In this document: positions 1-22,874 of the stretch, one piece after another | How the letters are laid out: the number at the start of each line of letters is the position of its first letter | Position numbering within the stretch: the stretch's first letter is position 1 | Assembly (NCBI GenBank): GCA_963770895.1 | Contig: CAVYRF010000002.1 | Span: forward strand, 1,344,001 to 1,408,000 | Source of the DNA: an uncultured Acidobacteriota bacterium | GTDB lineage: Bacteria > Acidobacteriota > Thermoanaerobaculia > Multivoradales > UBA5704 | Length of the DNA: 64,000 bases | Reading direction: 5' to 3' | Notes under the pieces: generated by a model | Databases searched by the model: none | The model's input: the letters and a program-made list of their open reading frames with translations, nothing else | Told to the model about the DNA's origin: nothing | Made by a program: the position numbers and the translations under genes

Positions 1-381
1 GAATCCGGTTGAAGTCCGCATCGGATCGGACGTGCGCCACCTCTTCCGCGGCTTCATGGTCTGGAACAGCGAGGTCGGCCACCACCGCTTAGGCATCCTC
101 ACCTTCCTCTACGATTTCGTCTGCGACAACCGCATGGTGCACGGCGCGCGGGAGGTGAAGGAGCTCTCCATCCGCCACACCAAGAACGGCCCGTACCGCT
201 TCGCGAGGGAGGCGCGCCCCATGCTTCAGGCTTACGCCGAGGCGTCGGTCTCCCAAGTCGAGAGCGAACTTCAGCGGGCAACCGAAACAATGGCGGGACG
301 GCGCTCGCGCGGTCGATCCCGCATGCGGACCAGCGGGTTTCCTTCGAGCGCAAGGTGAGTTCGTTGCTCCGGGCTGCATAG
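1..381 (+). pseudogene. DUF932-like mobile-element protein, 3' part, internally deleted and frameshifted
   Basis: One frame reads RGFMVWNSEVG...FLYDFVCDNRMVHG...IRHT (DUF932-like motifs). Near 297 the natural-looking C-terminus ALARSIPHADQRVSFERKVSSLLRAA* continues in another frame and ends at TAG 379-381. The 5' end lies outside the window. Confidence 0.6.
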
Positions 382-387
382 CCCAAG

Positions 388-416
388 AGCCCCTCCACTG
401 GAGGGGCTTGTCTTGT
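388..416 (+). terminator. Putative intrinsic terminator hairpin
   Basis: Inverted repeat AGCCCCTCCA-C-TGGAGGGGCT (388-408) followed by TGTCTTGT, 6 nt after the DUF932 stop. Confidence 0.45.
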
Positions 417-506
417 GGTAACATGGCGGTAACGGCGCACAAGAAACCAATAAAGTGGGGGCGCACACTACAAGCTATCTGAGCAGACTCTTTTGGAGAA
501 GTACCA

Positions 507-938
507 ATGGATGACATGGGTAACACATTGCAGAATGCTCGCCGGAGTTGGGACGAGCCATGGGGATGGTTCACATTTGAAGAGGGTAACCGGGTCATAC
601 ATCTGCTTCTCCGGCGCAGCGATCCCGTTGCCCAGAGGCTAGACGAGGCTCGGCATCGAGGTGAACCTTTAGGAGGCAAATACTCCGCCCGCCTGGACCC
701 TCCCCACACCCCGATGGGTCAACAGCACCTGCACCTCTTCGCCAATGGCAATCAACTCTGCGCCTTGAATGTAGACGGCACGGCTCACGACCGAAGCCAT
801 AGCGTCCAAATCCCTCGGAGGGCTGCAGCAGGGATTACTAGGCGCTTTCCGCAGTTCCTCCTACCCTCGGACAATCTAATCGAGGCTTTTGATGTGAGAT
901 CCGCAGATGACGTCAAAGCGCTCCTCGAATCGCTCTAA
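507..938 (+). CDS. Hypothetical His-rich protein (QQHLH, DGTAHD motifs), 143 aa
   Basis: Intact ORF, GGAG Shine-Dalgarno upstream, lower GC than host, overlaps the next gene by 32 nt. Confidence 0.75.
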   Translation: MDDMGNTLQNARRSWDEPWGWFTFEEGNRVIHLLLRRSDPVAQRLDEARHRGEPLGGKYSARLDPPHTPMGQQHLHLFANGNQLCALNVDGTAHDRSHSVQIPRRAAAGITRRFPQFLLPSDNLIEAFDVRSADDVKALLESL

Positions 939-2622
939 GCGGCGGCCGAATGCTCCGAGAAAGGCGCAGCAAGTGCGACAGAGAAAGACAGCTCCATCTA
1001 CAGCACCTCCGGCAGCTCATAACGCGGGAGTGGTTTGGACGCCGACCTGGCTTGCCTCTTTAAGTGAAGCTGATCTCCGCACACAGGTGCTCATACCGTT
1101 GTTTGAGGCAATGGGCTATCAAGGGGTTTACCACCATCACGGCGGAGCGTCCGAACTCGGCAAAGACCTCGTCATGTGGAAGGATGACCCAGCCATCGGC
1201 CGCTCCTATTATGGCGTGGTTGCCAAAGCCGGTGACATAAAAGGTGGCGTGACATCATCAGCCATACAGACAGTACTAATTCAGATTCGCCAAAGCTTTG
1301 GCAAACCGTACACAGACCCTCATTCGGGCGAGGAAAGAGCCATCACAACATGCTTTGTGGTCACATCGGCAGGCTTTCCAAAGGAGGCCCGGGATAGCAT
1401 TCGCGCAGACCTGGGCGACGCACATAGGCATGTAACATTTCACGATGGCGCATCACTTTGGAAATTGGTGGAGACTTATCTCTCAGGCAGATTGCTGCCT
1501 CACTACCTTGAGTCGGCGGCCAAGCTTCTTAACGACACTCATCCTGACTGGGCAATTGATGTTCATATAGTTGGTCGAGATATCTCACTCGAGCTGGCGC
1601 CAAAGACCCCCGACGCGCCACCCCTTGCTTGGTCGTTAGTCCCGCGCTTTCCGAACACGCAAGAAGGTCTGGCCGCAAAAGAAGCGTACAAAGAACATCT
1701 CGCCGTTGGCTCCGAGGTAACGCTTGACGGCTCCATGATCGAACGCTTCACCGCGCCTGAGTTTCTCCAACACTTGCACCCACACCCGATCACATCTCTA
1801 ACACTCTTTACCCGCTTTATTCTTCCAAAACCGCTAGTCGTTAATTTTGTCATTCAGTCGCGAGATAGTGCGCAGGTGTTCGAAATATCAGGAATCACCC
1901 TATCTACAGGTCAGCGCGGAGAACTGGAGACCAGCATAAATAATGAATCTCAATATACGCCCTTCAGGTTCAGGCTTCGCTTCCCGAAAAGCGGGAACGG
2001 CAGTTTTTCGCTCAGATTCGACCTGGATGGGCACAATATATATCGCCTCTGGCAAGCCATTCAAGCACTGACCCTCCTGGCCACAGGCGCGGACATCTTC
2101 TTCGTCGACGCAGAGACCGGTCGACACCTTCTCGGTGGACAGCCGGAAACTGATTTTAAGGCGCCATCTGAAGAGTTCGCCGCAAGCGTTGGAAAACTAC
2201 TAACCATTCAAGAGTTGACTGCTACTAACTTTCAGATTCCAGACCATAGTCCCACCGCGGATGAACTCTTAGAAGTTGAGTATGCCTATATTGCGCTTAC
2301 AGTGGGGCACTGCCCCGTAACAGAACTCGGCCTTTCGGTACCAGCCAAGGATGCACAGAACATTCTGGTCTCCCACGAGAAAGAGGGCGCCACTTTTTTG
2401 ATGTCACAAGAGGACAGAGTAATATCGGTTTTTGGGCAAGAAATACATCTCGGCCCCGTGGAAGTAAGGTGCAAAAGAGCGACAATCCATCCCGACGACC
2501 TGCCGGCGCTGACTAGCAACACAAACGACGATGAGAATATCCTCTTTAGGATGATTCCTCTTGGGAGCGAAGCCATGGAAGCGTTTTTTCTGAATTGGCC
2601 CAAGCCGGGACACAACCCCTGA
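907..2622 (+). CDS. Mrr-like/PD-(D/E)xK restriction-endonuclease domain fused to an uncharacterised ~380-aa C-terminal region
   Basis: N-terminal SEADLRTQVLIPLFEAMGY...ELGKDLV...GVVAK...VVTS...FHDGASL follows the Mrr-type nuclease pattern; intact 571-aa ORF with lower GC. Confidence 0.75.
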   Translation: MTSKRSSNRSKRRPNAPRKAQQVRQRKTAPSTAPPAAHNAGVVWTPTWLASLSEADLRTQVLIPLFEAMGYQGVYHHHGGASELGKDLVMWKDDPAIGRSYYGVVAKAGDIKGGVTSSAIQTVLIQIRQSFGKPYTDPHSGEERAITTCFVVTSAGFPKEARDSIRADLGDAHRHVTFHDGASLWKLVETYLSGRLLPHYLESAAKLLNDTHPDWAIDVHIVGRDISLELAPKTPDAPPLAWSLVPRFPNTQEGLAAKEAYKEHLAVGSEVTLDGSMIERFTAPEFLQHLHPHPITSLTLFTRFILPKPLVVNFVIQSRDSAQVFEISGITLSTGQRGELETSINNESQYTPFRFRLRFPKSGNGSFSLRFDLDGHNIYRLWQAIQALTLLATGADIFFVDAETGRHLLGGQPETDFKAPSEEFAASVGKLLTIQELTATNFQIPDHSPTADELLEVEYAYIALTVGHCPVTELGLSVPAKDAQNILVSHEKEGATFLMSQEDRVISVFGQEIHLGPVEVRCKRATIHPDDLPALTSNTNDDENILFRMIPLGSEAMEAFFLNWPKPGHNP

Positions 2623-3239
2623 ATCGTTGCGCACGGTTTCGCAAGCAAGAACAGCCCCACACGTTTCTGTGCAGGGCTATTCTGCACCAGCTGTCTCGCC
2701 TTTACGGATTGTCCTCAAGCTCCAGGAGCTTGGCGATCATTCTTTGTGCATTGGCCCCTGACCGAGAGTCCTCTCGTTGTGGGTCACGCAAAGCAACAGA
2801 CAGCCAATTTGCAATGACCTGGTAGCGCTTCGACAGCTTAACCTCAACGTTTTTCCGAAGTACGGTGCAGTTCGAAACGACTTCCGCGACGAGAAGGCGC
2901 TTTTCCTCCGGCAGCGCCATCTCGTAGCTTTAACAGAGCGCTCTTTGCCAGTTCGAAAAACTCGCCGAGGCGTTTTGGGGCCGGCCTTTCGGCGTCATCC
3001 CTCTGGGCTGTTTTCTGGTCAAGGAGCGAGCGCTGCTCTTCGAGGAGTCCGAGCTTGTGCGGATTCCGGCGAAGGCGACCACCTGTTCCGACGCAAGGCG
3101 ACCAGTCTGGTCGGAGCGAAGCGACGAAGAGGCTCAGGTTGGGTTCAAGGTAGTACCTCGCCGTAGCCCGTCTTTCCGCTGAAATCCAAATCTGGCAGGG
3201 TTGTGCTCCGAGAGGAGGACGACCATGGACGAGTTGGCA

Positions 3240-3831
3240 CGGCGGTTTCGCCATCAGGTTCCCCTTGGTCGGGCGCCTTTCCTCCATCCCCTCCGCCGGT
3301 TGGTGAGCATCGGTCGCTTCCACCGTAGGCCTCCCCTTGTCTGTTTCCGGCGTTTCCGCCTTCGTGCCCGCATAGGGTCGGCCATAGCCGCGTTTCCTCC
3401 ACTCTCGCTCGTTGTTCGGGGACTTCGTAGGTAGTACGCGCCCGTCTGACTTCCCGAGTCTGTTCATCGCTGGCTTCTGTCCGTAGACTTCCCAGCACGA
3501 CCCGTGGCACCATCTGCCCAGGGTGGACCCGGGATCTCCCGGTTCTCGCGTGAGATGGTTCTGTACATGCTCGAGGCCTCTGACCACGCGGGGTCCGTGC
3601 CCTTCTTGCCATACCGAAGGACCCGATGTTGCCTTCCGCCCGAGAGAACGGCGTCGGCACCCCGGACGACAAGCTTTTCGAGGCTCAATACTCGGCCTGT
3701 ACATACCCCTGTCAACGCTTCACGCCCGGCCTCACGACCGTCCGTGCATGACTCGGGGCCAGCATGGCTGGCTATGCCTTTGCTGTACGGCTCTTCCATC
3801 CGCTCCACCTCACCGGTTTATCCCGGCGCAC
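3240..3831 (-). mobile_element. Group II intron 5' fragment (roughly domains I-III; no RT ORF, no domain V/VI)
   Basis: Begins GTGCGCCGGG at 3831. Contains the typical segments GAACCGGGAG, GGAAGTCAGACGGG...CGAAG and GCGGAG...GGAGGAAAGG...AAGGGGAAC. EBS1 TCTCTCG (3641-3647) is complementary to the exon end CGAGAGA. Left boundary approximate. Confidence 0.85.
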
Positions 3832-3871: not shown

Positions 3872-4812
3872 CTCGACTCCTGATCGTCAAACGACCAGGA
3901 TGCCAGAGGTTTGTGAGCCCCTCCAAACGCTTATCGCGCATGCACTTACGGCGCATCGCGACCGGCATTCCGGGGAAGGCGACCACCCTTCCGGGCTTGG
4001 CGACCACTCTTCCGGCGGTCACACCAAAACCGGTCGTCTTCCCGTCGGAATCACTGGTCGCCTTCCGCCCGGAACGGTGGTCGCCTTCGACCCGGAATCG
4101 GTGGTCGCCTTCGACCGGATTACGCACGAGCTTGCGGCCTTCGAAGATTTCTTTCTCGATCGTGCCGTCAAGGAAGGCATCGGTGAGGCGCATGAGACGG
4201 CTCTCGACCAGCCCTTTTCGGCAAGCGCGAGAGAAAGGCTATCCAGGGTGAAGGCACCGGTTGCGTATGCTTCGAATGCCCATCTGATGAGCGGCCCATG
4301 TACCGGATCGATCTCCTTGGCCTTGCCTCTGCCGCGGTCGAGATAGCCGAGCGGAGCTTTCAGCGGATAGAGCCCCTGCTTCAGGCGGCCGTAGAATCCC
4401 TTGATGGTCTCTTCCCGAAGATTGCGGATGTAGTCCACGGCGACAACGGCCTGCACGTCGGCGGCCAGGCGGTCGTCGCGCGTCTCGATCCTGCGGTTCT
4501 CGCTTGCAATGTGGATCTCTACGCCCTCATCCATGAGGTCGTTCATGTCTGCCCAATCGAAGAAGTTCCGCGCACTGCGGTCTATCTTGTGGACGATCAC
4601 CCCTGCCGCGCCGGCTTTCCGGCGCTCGCGAAGCATCCGCTCGAAGACTCGCCGGCCGCGCTTTGCGGCCGTGACCTGATCCTCGTACCAGCGGTCAACA
4701 GCGAGATTATGCCGTCGAGCGTACTGCTCGATCGCGGTTCGCTGCTCTTGAAGCGAGACGCCTGTCTGCCCCTGCTTGGGCGTCGATACGCGTATATAGC
4801 CAAAGTAATGCT

Positions 4813-5049
4813 TCATGGCTTTTCATATTGATTTGTAAACGACCTTTCTGCGGCCATGGTAGGTTCTGAAGCGTCCGTTGTCAAAGCGCGAAGGGCGGCA
4901 AGGCGCTCGGGATCTGCCTCAATCGCCTCATATATTGTGAGGACGATCGCCAAATACCGCACCAATCCTTCGACGGCACTGTCTGTGTCTTCTCCCAGGA
5001 CAGGACTCAAGCGCTGTCGCAACTCGCGGAGCGCCTCGGTTTCTTTTGA

Positions 5050-5061
<12 letters not shown>
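4813..5061 (-). CDS. Small hypothetical protein translationally coupled to the serine recombinase
   Basis: 82 aa from ATG 5061, ATGA overlap with the recombinase start, TACACT box 6 nt upstream. Confidence 0.55.
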
Positions 5062-6440
<1,379 letters not shown>

Positions 6441-7763: not shown

Positions 7764-7977
7764 CGTCGTCTCCCTTTCGACCAGGCTTTGACACTGCGGT
7801 TCTGTTCTCTAGTGTGCAGGCGCCGGTAACGGCCGGGACGCTGGGGCGGGCGCTCCCGCTGGGGGGCAGAGAGACGAACGCTCCGCCTGCAGCCCCGCCG
7901 GCAGGACCCGGCGGTCGCAAGGACCGGGGACCCGGCGGGGGGGTGGCAGGGCAGCTGGAGGAGGGCCGGGCCGGGAG

Positions 7978-8361
7978 CTACTCGAAAGCGGCGGCGACCA
8001 GCTTGGGGGGGCCGCCGGCGGCGGCCAGTTCTGCGACCAGGACGGTTTCGTTGCTGCCGAAATCGTTGGGCGCGAAGGTGACCTTGACGGTCTTGGCATC
8101 GGCGACCTGGGGTTGGCCGGCCGGAGTGTTGAAAAAGATGCCTTCGTACTCGAAGTTGAACTTGCAGGCGTCGATCTGGATCGGCCGGTCGCATTCGAGG
8201 CGCACGGTGCGCGCGGAGAACGGGACGTTGGTCGCCAGGCGGACGCGCAGGATGTCCACGGGCGAGCCCTGGTGGTCCCTGCGATCAAGCTCTTCGGATT
8301 CGCTCTTGAGGCGGGGTTGGGCCTGTGTGCCGGCGGACCCCGGCGGGTTTCTCCAGGTCAT
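7978..8361 (-). CDS. Hypothetical protein, beta-rich, 127 aa
   Basis: Host-like codon usage, protein-like composition, TATACT box 6 nt upstream of ATG 8361. Confidence 0.7.
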   Translation of the reverse strand: MTWRNPPGSAGTQAQPRLKSESEELDRRDHQGSPVDILRVRLATNVPFSARTVRLECDRPIQIDACKFNFEYEGIFFNTPAGQPQVADAKTVKVTFAPNDFGSNETVLVAELAAAGGPPKLVAAAFE

Positions 8362-8437
8362 GGGCCGAGTATACACGAGGCCTCAAACGTGCAGGATAGA
8401 CTGTTGGCTGGCCGAAGCCGAGGGAGGGTTTGCGACG

Positions 8438-10471
8438 ATGGAAACGCTGGACATGGACGTCGATCAGCAGGTCATCAACACCATCCGCTTTCTGGCGGTG
8501 GACATGGTGGAAAAGGCGAACTCGGGGCACCCAGGCGCGCCGATGGGCCTGGCGCCGCTGGCGTACCTGCTGTGGGCGCGGCACATGCGCTTCGATCCCA
8601 CCGATTGCGACTGGCCGAACCGCGATCGGTTCGTGCTGTCCGCCGGCCATGCGTCGGCGCTGCTATACGCGATGCTGCACCTGACCGGGTATCCCCTGCC
8701 GATGGAGGAGCTGCAGCGCTTCCGCCAGCTCGACTCGCGCACGCCCGGCCACCCGGAATACGGGCACACGCAGGGCGTCGAGACGACCACCGGTCCGCTG
8801 GGCCAGGGGCTCGGCAACGCCGTCGGCATGGCGATCGCGCAGCGCAAGGCGGCCGCCGCCTTCAACCGCGACGGCTATTCGCTGTTCGACTACCGGGTGT
8901 GGGTGATCGCGAGCGACGGCGACATGATGGAGGGGGTGGGCGCCGAGGCGGCGTCGCTGGCCGGCCACCTGCAGCTGGGCAACCTGAAGGTCTTCTACGA
9001 CGACAACCACATCACCCTCGACGGCCCCAGCGCCCTGTCCTTCGGCGACGACGTGCCGAGCCGCTTTGCGGCGTACGGCTGGCGCGTCGAGCGGGTGCAC
9101 GACGTCAACGACCTGGCAGCGCTCGAGGCGGCGATCGCCGCCGCCGAAAGCGAGACCGAGCGGCCGTGCATGGTGGCGGTGCGCTCGATCATCGGCTACG
9201 GCGCCCCCACGAAGCAGAACACCGCCAAGGCGCACGGCTCGCCGCTGGGCAAGGCGGAGGCGGAGGGGGCCAAGAAGTTCTTCGGCTGGCCGCTCGATCC
9301 CACCTTCCTGGTGCCGCAGACGGCGCGCGACGCCTTCGCTCCCGCCCGCGAACGCGGCGCCCAGCTGCGGGCGGCCTGGCAGGACCTGTGGCAGCGCTAC
9401 CAGCAGGCCTTCCCGCAGGAGGGCGCCGACCTGGCCGGTCGCCTGGCCGGCCGCCTTCCCGACGGCTGGCATGAGGCGCTGCCGACGTTCGCGCCGGGCG
9501 ACGGACCGATCGCCACCCGCAACGCTTCGGGCAAGGTGCTCAACGCCCTGGCGCCCAAGCTGCCGCAGCTGATCGGCGGCGCCGCGGACCTGTCGTCCTC
9601 CAACGAGACGATGATCAAGAACGAGGCGAACTTCGAGCCGGACCAGCCCGCCGGCCGCAACTTCTTTTTTGGCGTCCGCGAGCACGCCATGGGGTCGGCG
9701 CTCAACGGCATCGCCGTGTCGCGCCTCTGGATACCCTACGGCGGCACCTTCCTCATCTTCTCCGACTACATGCGGCCGCCGGTCCGCCTTGCCTGCTTGA
9801 TGGGGCTGCAGGTGATCTACGTGTACACCCACGATTCGATCTTCCTCGGCGAGGACGGCCCGACGCACCAGCCGATCAGCCAGCTGGCGTCGTTGCGCTC
9901 GCTGCCGCACATGACGGTGATCCGGCCGGCCGACGCCAACGAAACGGCGGCGGCGTGGCGGGTGGCGATCGAAAACAGCCACGGTCCGACGGCGCTGGTG
10001 CTGACCCGGCAAAACCTGCCCGTCTTCGCCGAAACGGCCACCGCCGCCGTCAGCGGCGTGCCGCGCGGCGCCTACGTGCTGAGCGAGCCGGCTCCCGCCG
10101 CCGGCGCGGCAGCGGGCCAGCCGGACATCCTGCTGCTGGCCACCGGTTCCGAGGTTTCCCTGGCGTACGACGCAGCCCAGCGCCTGGCAGGCCAGGGAGT
10201 GCGGGCGCGGGTGGTGAGCATGCCCAGCTGGGAGCTGTTCGACCGCCAGGACGCCGCCTACCGCGACCAGGTGCTGCCGCCGGCGGTGCGCCGGCGCCTG
10301 GCGATCGAAGCCGCGGCGCCCTTCGGCTGGCACAAGTACCTTGGCCTCGACGGCGAGATGATCGGCATGGAAGGCTTCGGCGCCTCGGCGCCGGCCAAGG
10401 ACCTGTATCCGCGCTTCGGCTTCACCGTCGACAAGATCGTGGAGCGCGCCCTGCACATCATGAAACGCTGA
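8438..10471 (+). CDS. tkt: Transketolase
   Basis: NSGHPGAPMG, RDRFVLSAGH, GDMMEG ThDP motif, THDSIFLGEDGPTHQP; GGAGG RBS. Confidence 0.97.
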   Translation: METLDMDVDQQVINTIRFLAVDMVEKANSGHPGAPMGLAPLAYLLWARHMRFDPTDCDWPNRDRFVLSAGHASALLYAMLHLTGYPLPMEELQRFRQLDSRTPGHPEYGHTQGVETTTGPLGQGLGNAVGMAIAQRKAAAAFNRDGYSLFDYRVWVIASDGDMMEGVGAEAASLAGHLQLGNLKVFYDDNHITLDGPSALSFGDDVPSRFAAYGWRVERVHDVNDLAALEAAIAAAESETERPCMVAVRSIIGYGAPTKQNTAKAHGSPLGKAEAEGAKKFFGWPLDPTFLVPQTARDAFAPARERGAQLRAAWQDLWQRYQQAFPQEGADLAGRLAGRLPDGWHEALPTFAPGDGPIATRNASGKVLNALAPKLPQLIGGAADLSSSNETMIKNEANFEPDQPAGRNFFFGVREHAMGSALNGIAVSRLWIPYGGTFLIFSDYMRPPVRLACLMGLQVIYVYTHDSIFLGEDGPTHQPISQLASLRSLPHMTVIRPADANETAAAWRVAIENSHGPTALVLTRQNLPVFAETATAAVSGVPRGAYVLSEPAPAAGAAAGQPDILLLATGSEVSLAYDAAQRLAGQGVRARVVSMPSWELFDRQDAAYRDQVLPPAVRRRLAIEAAAPFGWHKYLGLDGEMIGMEGFGASAPAKDLYPRFGFTVDKIVERALHIMKR

Positions 10472-21720: not shown

Positions 21721-21896
21721 GCCCGCCGCCCCGGGGCCGGACCTCCAGGTCGTCCGGCCCGGCGCGGCCCGCGCCGGGCACGGCTGGACCGACCTGACGG
21801 ACCTGACCAGCAGGCTCGCCGGTTCCGGCCCTCTGTGTGCTAGCATCCCGCCCGCTCGGCTGGGAAGGCTGTCGGTCCTGGCCGCGGCGCACACCT

Positions 21897-22874
21897 ATGG
21901 AAATCTACGACGACATCCTGGAAACGCTCGGCAATACGCCGCTGGTGCGCCTGCGCCGGTTTCACCCCGCAGGGGCGACGCTGGCGGCGAAGATCGAGTC
22001 GTTCAACCCTGGCGGCAGCGTCAAGGACCGGATCAGCATCGCCATGATCGAGGCCGGGGAGCGCGCCGGCCTGCTGAAGCCTGGCGGCACCATCGTCGAG
22101 CCCACCTCGGGCAATACCGGCGTGGGTCTGGCGATGGCGGCCAACCTGCGCGGCTACCAGCTGATCTGCACCGCCGCCGACAAGATCCCGCAGGAGAAGA
22201 TCGCCCTGTTGGAGGCCTTGGGCGCCAAGGTGATCACCTGCCCGACCCACGTCGAGGCGGACGACCCCCGGTCGTATTACAAGGTGGCGGAGCGGCTGCG
22301 CGACGAGGAAGGCGCCTACCTGCCCTACCAGTACTACAACCAGGCCAACCCGGAGGCGCACTATCGCACCACCGGCCCCGAGATCTGGCGCCAGACCGAC
22401 GGCAGGATCACCCACTGGATTGCCGGCGTGGGCACCGGCGGCACCATCAGCGGCACCGCCAAATATCTCAAAGAGCAGAACCCGGCGATCCGGGTCATCG
22501 GCGTGGACCCGATCGGCAGCGTCTACCTGTATTACCGCCAGCACGGCAAGCTGCCGCCCGCCGACCAGATCCACCAATACCTGATCGACGGCATCGGCGA
22601 AGACTTCCTGCCTTCGTGCGTGTGGTGGGACTATATCGACGAGATCGTCAAGGTGGACGACAAGGCGGCCTACCGCGCCACCCTGGAGCTGGCCCGCAAG
22701 GAGTCGATCTTTGTCGGCTCGTCGAGCGGCGCCGCCGCCGCCGGCGCCCGCCAGATCGCCGCCGGCCTGCCCGCCGACGCCCTGGTCGTCACGCTCTTCC
22801 CCGACTCGGGCGAGCGCTACCTTTCAAAGCTCAATCAGACCTGGCTGCGCGGCCACGGCCTGCTCGACGACTGA
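21897..22874 (+). CDS. PLP-dependent cysteine synthase/cystathionine beta-synthase family
   Basis: NPGGSVKDR (PLP lysine), EPTSGNTG, GVGTGGT, PDSGERYLSK. Confidence 0.95.
   Translation: MEIYDDILETLGNTPLVRLRRFHPAGATLAAKIESFNPGGSVKDRISIAMIEAGERAGLLKPGGTIVEPTSGNTGVGLAMAANLRGYQLICTAADKIPQEKIALLEALGAKVITCPTHVEADDPRSYYKVAERLRDEEGAYLPYQYYNQANPEAHYRTTGPEIWRQTDGRITHWIAGVGTGGTISGTAKYLKEQNPAIRVIGVDPIGSVYLYYRQHGKLPPADQIHQYLIDGIGEDFLPSCVWWDYIDEIVKVDDKAAYRATLELARKESIFVGSSSGAAAAGARQIAAGLPADALVVTLFPDSGERYLSKLNQTWLRGHGLLDD

Follow-up and report, generated by a model that had tools for sequence, protein, structure and literature searches.

Effector-sensor fusions are one of the main routes by which bacteria detect phages, and the sensors characterised so far belong mostly to the STAND NTPases, to the SAVED/CARF domains or to the partners of Argonautes. 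The locus discussed here is a pair of overlapping genes (gene 1 and gene 2) close to the beginning of a 64,000-nucleotide stretch (the window, numbered from its first letter) of contig CAVYRF010000002.1 from an uncultured Acidobacteriota bacterium (GenBank assembly GCA_963770895.1; genome 8.16 Mb in three contigs, G+C content 0.708). The product of gene 2 combines a modelled nuclease fold with a C-terminal module (C-module) that no library recognises; the original prediction had already described a nuclease pattern followed by an unassigned region. We read gene 2 as a single-protein sensor-effector immune nuclease of an unnamed family, and we consider this reading to have an even chance of being right.

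The AlphaFold2 model of gene 2, obtained from 86 sequences, has a predicted local distance difference test (pLDDT) score of 91.1 and contains the alpha-beta-beta-beta-alpha-beta core fold in the N-terminal domain, the best fold matches being MspJI (9.3), AspBHI (9.1), BspD6I and LlaBIII (both 8.8), along with FokI. Among the 86 sequences E54, E83, G85, D87 and Q126 are invariant, and K86, V105 and K107 are at least 90% conserved. D87 and K107 correspond to the canonical Asp and Lys of the PD-(D/E)xK centre and are separated by 20 residues, the spacing in FokI being 19. The position two residues before K107, normally occupied by Asp, Glu or Gln, is the conserved V105, so that the metal site must be completed in some other way; from sequence conservation, E83 and E54 are candidates for supplying the missing carboxylate. 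With Pfam, Mrr_cat was the sole family matched by gene 2 at E ≤ 1, with 18.9 bits (below the cut-off of 21). PF04471 is listed in precomputed tables for the relatives P0010 and P0014, and the L044 protein reaches 21.2 bits. No model of PADLOC v2, NCBIfam or PHROGs matches gene 2, and PDB sequence profiles gave nothing below E 0.2. The likeness of the C-terminal region to AbiGii_2 proteins that had initially been proposed was not recovered, no such Pfam match being found at E ≤ 1. The nuclease domain is preceded by a tail (residues 1-41) that is present only in the closest relatives, as seen in the alignment with P0006 and P0007, and that contains the overlap with gene 1.

In the model, the C-module consists of long beta hairpins and a few helices, apparently arranged in about three subdomains, as read from the secondary structure. 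Conservation in the C-module is confined to Gly, Asn, Gln, Pro and Trp columns; none is acidic, basic or His. The lack of conserved residues of the catalytic type therefore points to binding rather than catalysis, and on these grounds we take the C-module to be the sensor or recognition part of the protein. The strongest single argument for an effector-sensor arrangement is the reuse of the C-module with a different effector. A 516-residue acidobacterial protein has an N-terminal TIR_2 domain (E 1.1e-22), and its residues 164-470 align to residues 210-515 of gene 2 (hhalign 97.4%, E 1.2e-11, 298 columns). The best PADLOC matches of its TIR domain are PDC-S66 and ThsB. This protein is one of six further open reading frames (ORFs) in five genomes, out of 401 genomes of the same phylum, that were matched through the C-module alone, all six being scanned with PADLOC. 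A second of the six, 623 residues long, carries a different, Mrr_cat/LmuA-like, nuclease ahead of the C-module, and the other four have unassigned flanks. When the whole gene 2 model was compared with structure collections (Foldseek PDB, VIA wide, VIA second look and BFVD), all rows of any confidence were confined to the nuclease domain; these searches barely tested the C-terminal part. In ESM Atlas the best value for the C-module was 0.80, which is chance level.

A HMMER search of 1.84 billion representative proteins returned 1255 members of the gene 2 family at E ≤ 1e-3, 521 of which fall at or below 1e-10 and 208 at or below 1e-30; the best 150 relatives are mostly 530-560 residues long, the match running from about residue 45 to residue 565. 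Of the 22 genomic loci collected, 15 carry a full-length relative; in two the gene is cut by the contig end, in one it is split in two ORFs, three share only the nuclease domain with it and one has a fragment. The hosts are metagenome-assembled genomes (MAGs) of Acidobacteriota, Gemmatimonadota, Verrucomicrobiota, Eisenbacteria and others. The distribution is sparse and patchy: the only full-length gene 2 among the 401 genomes of its own phylum is that of the window's genome, and one of 391 Verrucomicrobiota genomes and two of 391 Gemmatimonadota genomes carry the C-module, the starting genomes included. Among 72,556 plasmid records, two matched gene 2, both limited to the N-terminal domain and neither a full-length copy, and no gene 2 relative was found among 2.9 million viral contigs. 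As regards expression, no RNA data set was listed; the four DNA data sets listed are soil metagenomes of a single study.

The neighbourhoods of gene 2 relatives were surveyed through 49 neighbouring proteins from 17 loci, all scanned with Pfam and 29 of them also with PADLOC. A PADLOC-matched neighbour (E ≤ 1e-5) was present in six of the 17 loci, a count that comes without a background rate. PADLOC (v2), one of the checks suggested with the original prediction, named no system for gene 2. For one relative (L009) the gene directly downstream is a complete Avs4 (1330 bits), and a 1609-residue STAND-like protein lies upstream. In L010 the relative is directly preceded, at 2057-3324, by an HTH_3 gene together with an M78 peptidase that matches CapP (E 2.1e-42); the two overlap its start, an arrangement resembling the CapH/CapP control of other defence systems. 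Elsewhere, relatives are found near a Uma2 nuclease and a protein that combines TIR with FGE-sulfatase (L005), near a pPIWI-associated nuclease (L007), near a STAND protein with an LmuA-like nuclease (L013) and, in L015, immediately after a gene in which an N6_N4 methyltransferase is fused to Mrr_cat. These defence neighbourhoods are suggestive only. An all-against-all BLAST of 158 neighbouring ORFs from the 22 loci revealed no recurrent partner, save transketolase (two loci) and one weak trio 2-4 kb away. The small ORFs just downstream of gene 2 relatives are not homologous to one another, and the same holds for those that follow gene 1 relatives.

Taken as a sensor-effector, gene 2 would operate with its N-terminal Mrr/FokI-type domain as the effector and with the non-enzymatic C-module detecting a cue from the invader, which would be a protein of the phage or a feature of a nucleic acid. 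On detection the effector would become active, most likely through the assembly of nuclease domains known from FokI and Avs4; DNA would then be cut and the infection stopped, with or without death of the cell. Sensing, activation driven by oligomerisation, the DNA target and protection from phages are the properties that we infer for gene 2 on the model of such proteins. Gene 1 would be co-transcribed within the same low-GC cassette by chance, with no role as a dedicated partner. Several observations weigh against this reading. The defence role of gene 2 is argued from association, with no background rate, 11 of the 17 loci have no PADLOC-matched neighbour, and several relatives adjoin housekeeping genes (transketolase, PFOR, SHMT). 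The TIR fusion of the C-module was found once only. The replacement of the canonical (D/E)xK acid by V105 makes the catalytic centre non-standard, and it might be inactive. The C-module was searched only within the whole model, and a known DNA-binding fold could have been missed. Finally, the overlap of the two genes, their shared low G+C content at third codon positions (GC3) and the hairpin that isolates them fit a functional gene 1-gene 2 unit better.

Gene 1 belongs to a family of its own. A first search gave only four relatives, and a profile of 15 sequences retrieved 173 clusters at E ≤ 1e-3, with members of about 130 residues that are all labelled hypothetical; they come from Aliarcobacter, Acidiferrobacter, Gallionella, Udaeobacter and many metagenomes. 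The histidine-rich motifs PPHT, QQHLH and DGTAHDRSH, on which the original prediction had built its suggestion of metal binding or catalysis, are present in the translation, as is the GKDLV motif of gene 2. In 70 sequences E47, H74, G91, I102 and E126 are invariant and Y59, S60, H64, H67, H76, Y78, N82, N88, H94, D95, S97 and H98 are at least 90% conserved. Together these conserved positions, with their His, Asp and Glu residues, resemble a metal or active site, and gene 1 is probably a small metal-binding enzyme of an uncharacterised family, separate from gene 2. The gene 1 model (pLDDT 84.7) gave no fold match. An HNH or His-Me finger, considered for the H-x-H ... N ... H-x3-H pattern, found no supporting beta-beta-alpha-metal fold match; the weak ricin-A-chain rows (E 0.13-0.65, probability at most 0.41, TM about 0.25) were judged to be noise, as was the one Pfam match to RIP (E 0.2, in one of 15 members). 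PDB sequence profiles matched only a beta-propeller repeat motif, PHROGs returned nothing for five family members, and the ESM Atlas neighbours are unnamed clusters, one of which (at 0.89) has 24% DUF6367 members. The earlier suggestion that gene 1 is of the DUF6367 type is not supported by the score, 11.8 bits against a cut-off of 25 in one of the 15 family members, and the DUF6367 model finds nothing in the genome. Literature searches by keyword, whose coverage is partial and which are no proof that a family is unpublished, turned up no description of the gene 1 or the gene 2 family and no paper (0) on DUF6367.

The surroundings of gene 1 relatives were inspected in ten distinct metagenome loci, 39 neighbours being scanned with PADLOC. 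AbiD and RmrT/RmrA lie near one relative (L026), HEPN and Schlafen-like genes near a second (L032), and PDC-M38 and AbiLi-like genes near a third (L037). In L031:1360-4951 the gene 1 relative starts one nucleotide after the stop codon of a type I HsdR and is followed by two GmrSD-like genes. The gene 1 family thus also frequents variable and defence regions, and all-against-all BLAST identified no recurrent neighbour family. Two genes downstream of another gene 1 relative, a 488-residue ORF (L038:1784-3250) has the ribosomal protein L7/L12 C-terminal domain (E 1e-18) at its end, which is an unusual fusion. Two weak relatives of gene 1 were found among the viral contigs and none among the plasmid records.

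The two genes are co-oriented and overlap by 32 nt (907-938), as originally described, and both ORFs are regarded as real genes rather than chance frames because each has a family of homologues. The start of gene 2 is likely the ATG at 907, since the closest relative, P0006, begins in a similar way (MATSKRRS, compared with MTSKRS here); at the alternative GTG at 1030 a purine-rich stretch abuts the codon directly. The hairpin upstream of gene 1 has a minimum free energy of -25.3 kcal/mol (z -3.65) and none of 200 shuffled sequences folded as well. It is likely a terminator that makes gene 1 and gene 2 their own transcription unit, although a consensus terminator scan did not list it; the same scan found no internal terminator between the two genes. 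Gene 1 and gene 2 have G+C contents of 0.569 and 0.527 and GC3 values of 0.60 and 0.54, to be compared with GC3 of 0.72-0.80 in the island backbone and 0.90 in host genes. These values mark the pair as island cargo of foreign composition, in agreement with the original description of lower-GC genes in a tRNA-integrated element.

Such a layout would fit a two-component system of gene 1 and gene 2, in which gene 1 would be a regulator, a co-sensor or a second enzyme, at least in the subclade with the basic tail. The overlap, the absence of an internal terminator, the isolating hairpin and the similar foreign GC3 all agree with it. So does the conservation, in the two closest gene 2 relatives, of the N-terminal tail that creates the overlap, and the HsdR locus indicates that gene 1 can share an operon with restriction nucleases. 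Against it, the two families did not co-occur in any of the loci and genomes compared. The gene 1 hidden Markov model (HMM) gave no match even at E ≤ 10 in the 2935 ORFs of the 22 gene 2 loci (a set that leaves out the closest relatives P0006 and P0007, with 52% and 49% identity, from Logan contigs). The gene 2 HMM had 0 matches in 18 metagenome gene 1 loci (11 of them distinct, nine of these with at least 1 kb of downstream DNA). None of the five genomes with gene 2 contains gene 1 at any position, and the only one of the 401 phylum genomes with gene 1 is that of the window. The closest gene 1 relatives with context (55% identity, L023) are followed by other genes. Prediction of the gene 2-gene 1 complex (alignments A3 and A7) scored 0.04 against a mark of 0.32, and this result counts neither way. 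By taking these data into account, we regard a two-component system as quite improbable, and the small partner that the original prediction had assigned to the nuclease finds no counterpart in the relatives of either gene. Its broader proposal of a candidate anti-phage system stands in so far as a defence role of gene 2 is plausible from the TIR reuse and the immune neighbours, and falls in so far as a two-gene system is unsupported outside this island.

It may also be argued that gene 2 acts alone as a restriction endonuclease of the type IV or type IIS kind, with the C-module binding DNA directly (at a modified base or a sequence), the N-terminal domain cutting close by, and neither a separate trigger nor an abortive outcome. 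The fold matches of the nuclease domain are indeed enzymes with a separate recognition domain (FokI, MspJI, AspBHI, BspD6I, LlaBIII), and the L015 relative directly follows a methyltransferase-Mrr_cat fusion. Sliding-clamp-like proteins appear among weak Foldseek rows (probability 0.05-0.12), which is a hint only. No DNA methyltransferase family was matched among the scanned island ORFs, as initially noted, nor at E ≤ 1e-5 among 34 greedily picked ORFs of at least 150 residues at window positions 7814-63988, 14 of which had no match of any kind; greedy picking at 70% GC may take wrong frames. An adjacent methyltransferase is likewise absent from 16 of the 17 loci, which fits a type IV and not a type II enzyme. 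However, the fusion of the same C-module to TIR, an NAD-consuming or signalling effector, would be odd for a DNA-scanning restriction enzyme, and no SRA, winged-helix or other DNA-reading fold aligned to residues 200-571, a part barely tested by these searches. We consider a solitary restriction enzyme unlikely, while giving it more weight than the two-component system. The least probable of the explanations weighed here is that neither gene is immune, so that both would serve the mobile element (DNA processing, addiction), or gene 1 would be an anti-defence gene of a transfer leading region. It draws on the genes just upstream of gene 1, which encode a TrwB/TraG-like ATPase, RadC and a DUF932-like protein; the leading regions of conjugative elements typically contain genes of this sort and are also where clusters of anti-defence genes lie. 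Neither gene, however, was found at full length on plasmids, the viral contigs contribute only the two weak gene 1 relatives and no gene 2, and the relatives lie in chromosomal variable regions beside defence genes, not transfer genes.

The island that carries the two genes is about 11.6 kb long, is inserted at tRNA-Ser(gct) and is bounded by a 21-bp direct repeat of the tRNA 3' end, with a tyrosine integrase adjoining the tRNA (table 1). Besides the genes already mentioned, the Pfam scan detected a transposase fragment. Within 3574-3796 the intron fragment has no reverse-transcriptase ORF and no D5-D6 match, and the ORF at 2844-3704 has no Pfam match; this intron between gene 2 and the serine recombinase looks ORF-less or decayed.

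Table 1. Features of the gene 1-gene 2 locus and of the surrounding island, in window coordinates (a negative value lies before the window).
Feature	Position	Strand	Remarks
Left copy of att repeat	-5198		11.5 kb upstream of the tRNA copy
DUF932-like gene, 3' end	2..358	+	Full ORF begins 757 nt before the window
GC-rich hairpin followed by U-rich stretch	381..419	+	Between the DUF932 gene and gene 1
Gene 1	507..938	+	143 aa, ATG; GGAG 8 nt upstream of the ATG
Gene 2	907..2622	+	571 aa, ATG; nuclease plus C-module protein
Basic, disordered tail of gene 2	907..1029	+	Residues 1-41; pLDDT <50 for residues 1-38
Mrr/FokI-type PD-(D/E)xK nuclease domain of gene 2	1030..1500	+	Residues 42-198
Mostly beta C-terminal module of gene 2	1519..2619	+	Residues 205-571, about 365 residues
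Group II intron D1-D4 fragment	3574..3796	-	3' of gene 2; RF02005, 189 bits, E 1.9e-56
Serine recombinase	4019..4816	-	PF00239, E 3.1e-24; resolvase N-terminal domain intact; C-terminus enters the repeat array
Tyrosine integrase of the island	5050..6405	+	PF00589, E 1.7e-23; ORF reads into the tRNA gene
tRNA-Ser(gct)	6348..6440	-	3' end (6348-6368) is the right copy of the 21-bp att repeat

Some further observations concern the island and its borders. Arrays of 21-23-nt GC-rich repeats occupy window positions 3063-3106 and 3967-4120, with the core GGTCGCCTTC / GAAGGCGACC; they form long inverted repeats about 950 nt apart that flank the intron fragment, and the second array enters the 3' end of the serine recombinase ORF, the C-terminus of which appears non-native. 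A transketolase gene lies just past the tRNA-Ser, at 7814-10471, and two gene 2 relatives in Acidobacteriota MAG loci (L012:5-1258 and L017:55-1194) are found 6-15 nt downstream of transketolase; insertions may share a hot spot here. At 22635-22727 ARAGORN called a tRNA-Gly of 93 nt with the anticodon ACC; both its length and its anticodon are odd for a tRNA-Gly, and it overlaps a greedily picked ORF with a PALP domain (21837-22874), making it possibly a false call. Outside the island, past a glutaminyl-tRNA synthetase gene and a tRNA-Gln, there is a stretch of lower GC (0.60) at L041:1-1200, corresponding to window positions -9000 to -7800.

A wider proposal can be built on the sensor-effector reading of gene 2, and we hold it tentatively, with less confidence than that reading itself. 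The C-module would represent a new family for recognition of invaders, distinct from STAND, SAVED and APAZ, used by soil bacteria in one-protein immune receptors with interchangeable effectors (Mrr/FokI nuclease or TIR), and gene 1 would belong to a second and independent family of small metal-dependent enzymes in defence islands. If this were true, a compact sensor without a known fold and with two classic effectors would amount to a new recognition principle, and gene 2 would offer a small, tractable protein with which to find its trigger. Most occurrences of the C-module are in soil phyla that have received little study (Acidobacteriota, Gemmatimonadota, Verrucomicrobiota). More generally, this locus illustrates that an overlapping gene pair in the cargo of an island is not by itself a system.

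Comparison with described proteins places gene 2 near several of them without merging it with any. Avs4 and other Avs/STAND defence proteins of its kind also have an N-terminal Mrr-type nuclease. Gene 2 instead lacks the STAND or P-loop NTPase and the TPR regions (no Pfam match beyond Mrr_cat), is much shorter (571 residues, compared with the 1534 of the Avs4 chain 8dgf_B that was aligned) and is matched by no PADLOC Avs model. In FokI, MspJI and AspBHI the domain order is the reverse of that in gene 2, where the nuclease comes first, their recognition domains are not matched, and the middle acidic residue or Gln of their D...(D/E/Q)xK motif is replaced by Val. With the SAVED and CARF effectors of CBASS and type III CRISPR (the nuclease-SAVED Cap4, TIR-SAVED, Can2 and Card1) the alignments end at the nuclease domain, gene 2 has no SAVED or CARF match in Pfam at E ≤ 1, and the long beta hairpins of the C-module are not Rossmann-like; no cyclase was found among the island ORFs or among the neighbours in 17 related loci, and no CRISPR genes in the island. 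LmuA of Lamassu also differs, in that gene 2 has no such PADLOC match and the island holds no SMC-like neighbour corresponding to LmuB. Gene 1 resembles DUF6367 and DUF4160 in being a small bacterial protein of similar size; the matches (DUF6367, E 0.2 in one of 15 sequences; DUF4160, E 0.05 in two of 15) score far below the cut-offs, and as neither family has an assigned function, membership would explain nothing about the gene. As for the partners of short Argonautes, Piwi was not matched in the island ORFs or in the 49 neighbouring proteins of gene 2 relatives, and the likeness lies in the architecture: in the Mrr-, TIR- and DREN-APAZ proteins, as in the gene 2 family, an Mrr-type nuclease and a TIR domain alternate on a shared C-terminal module.

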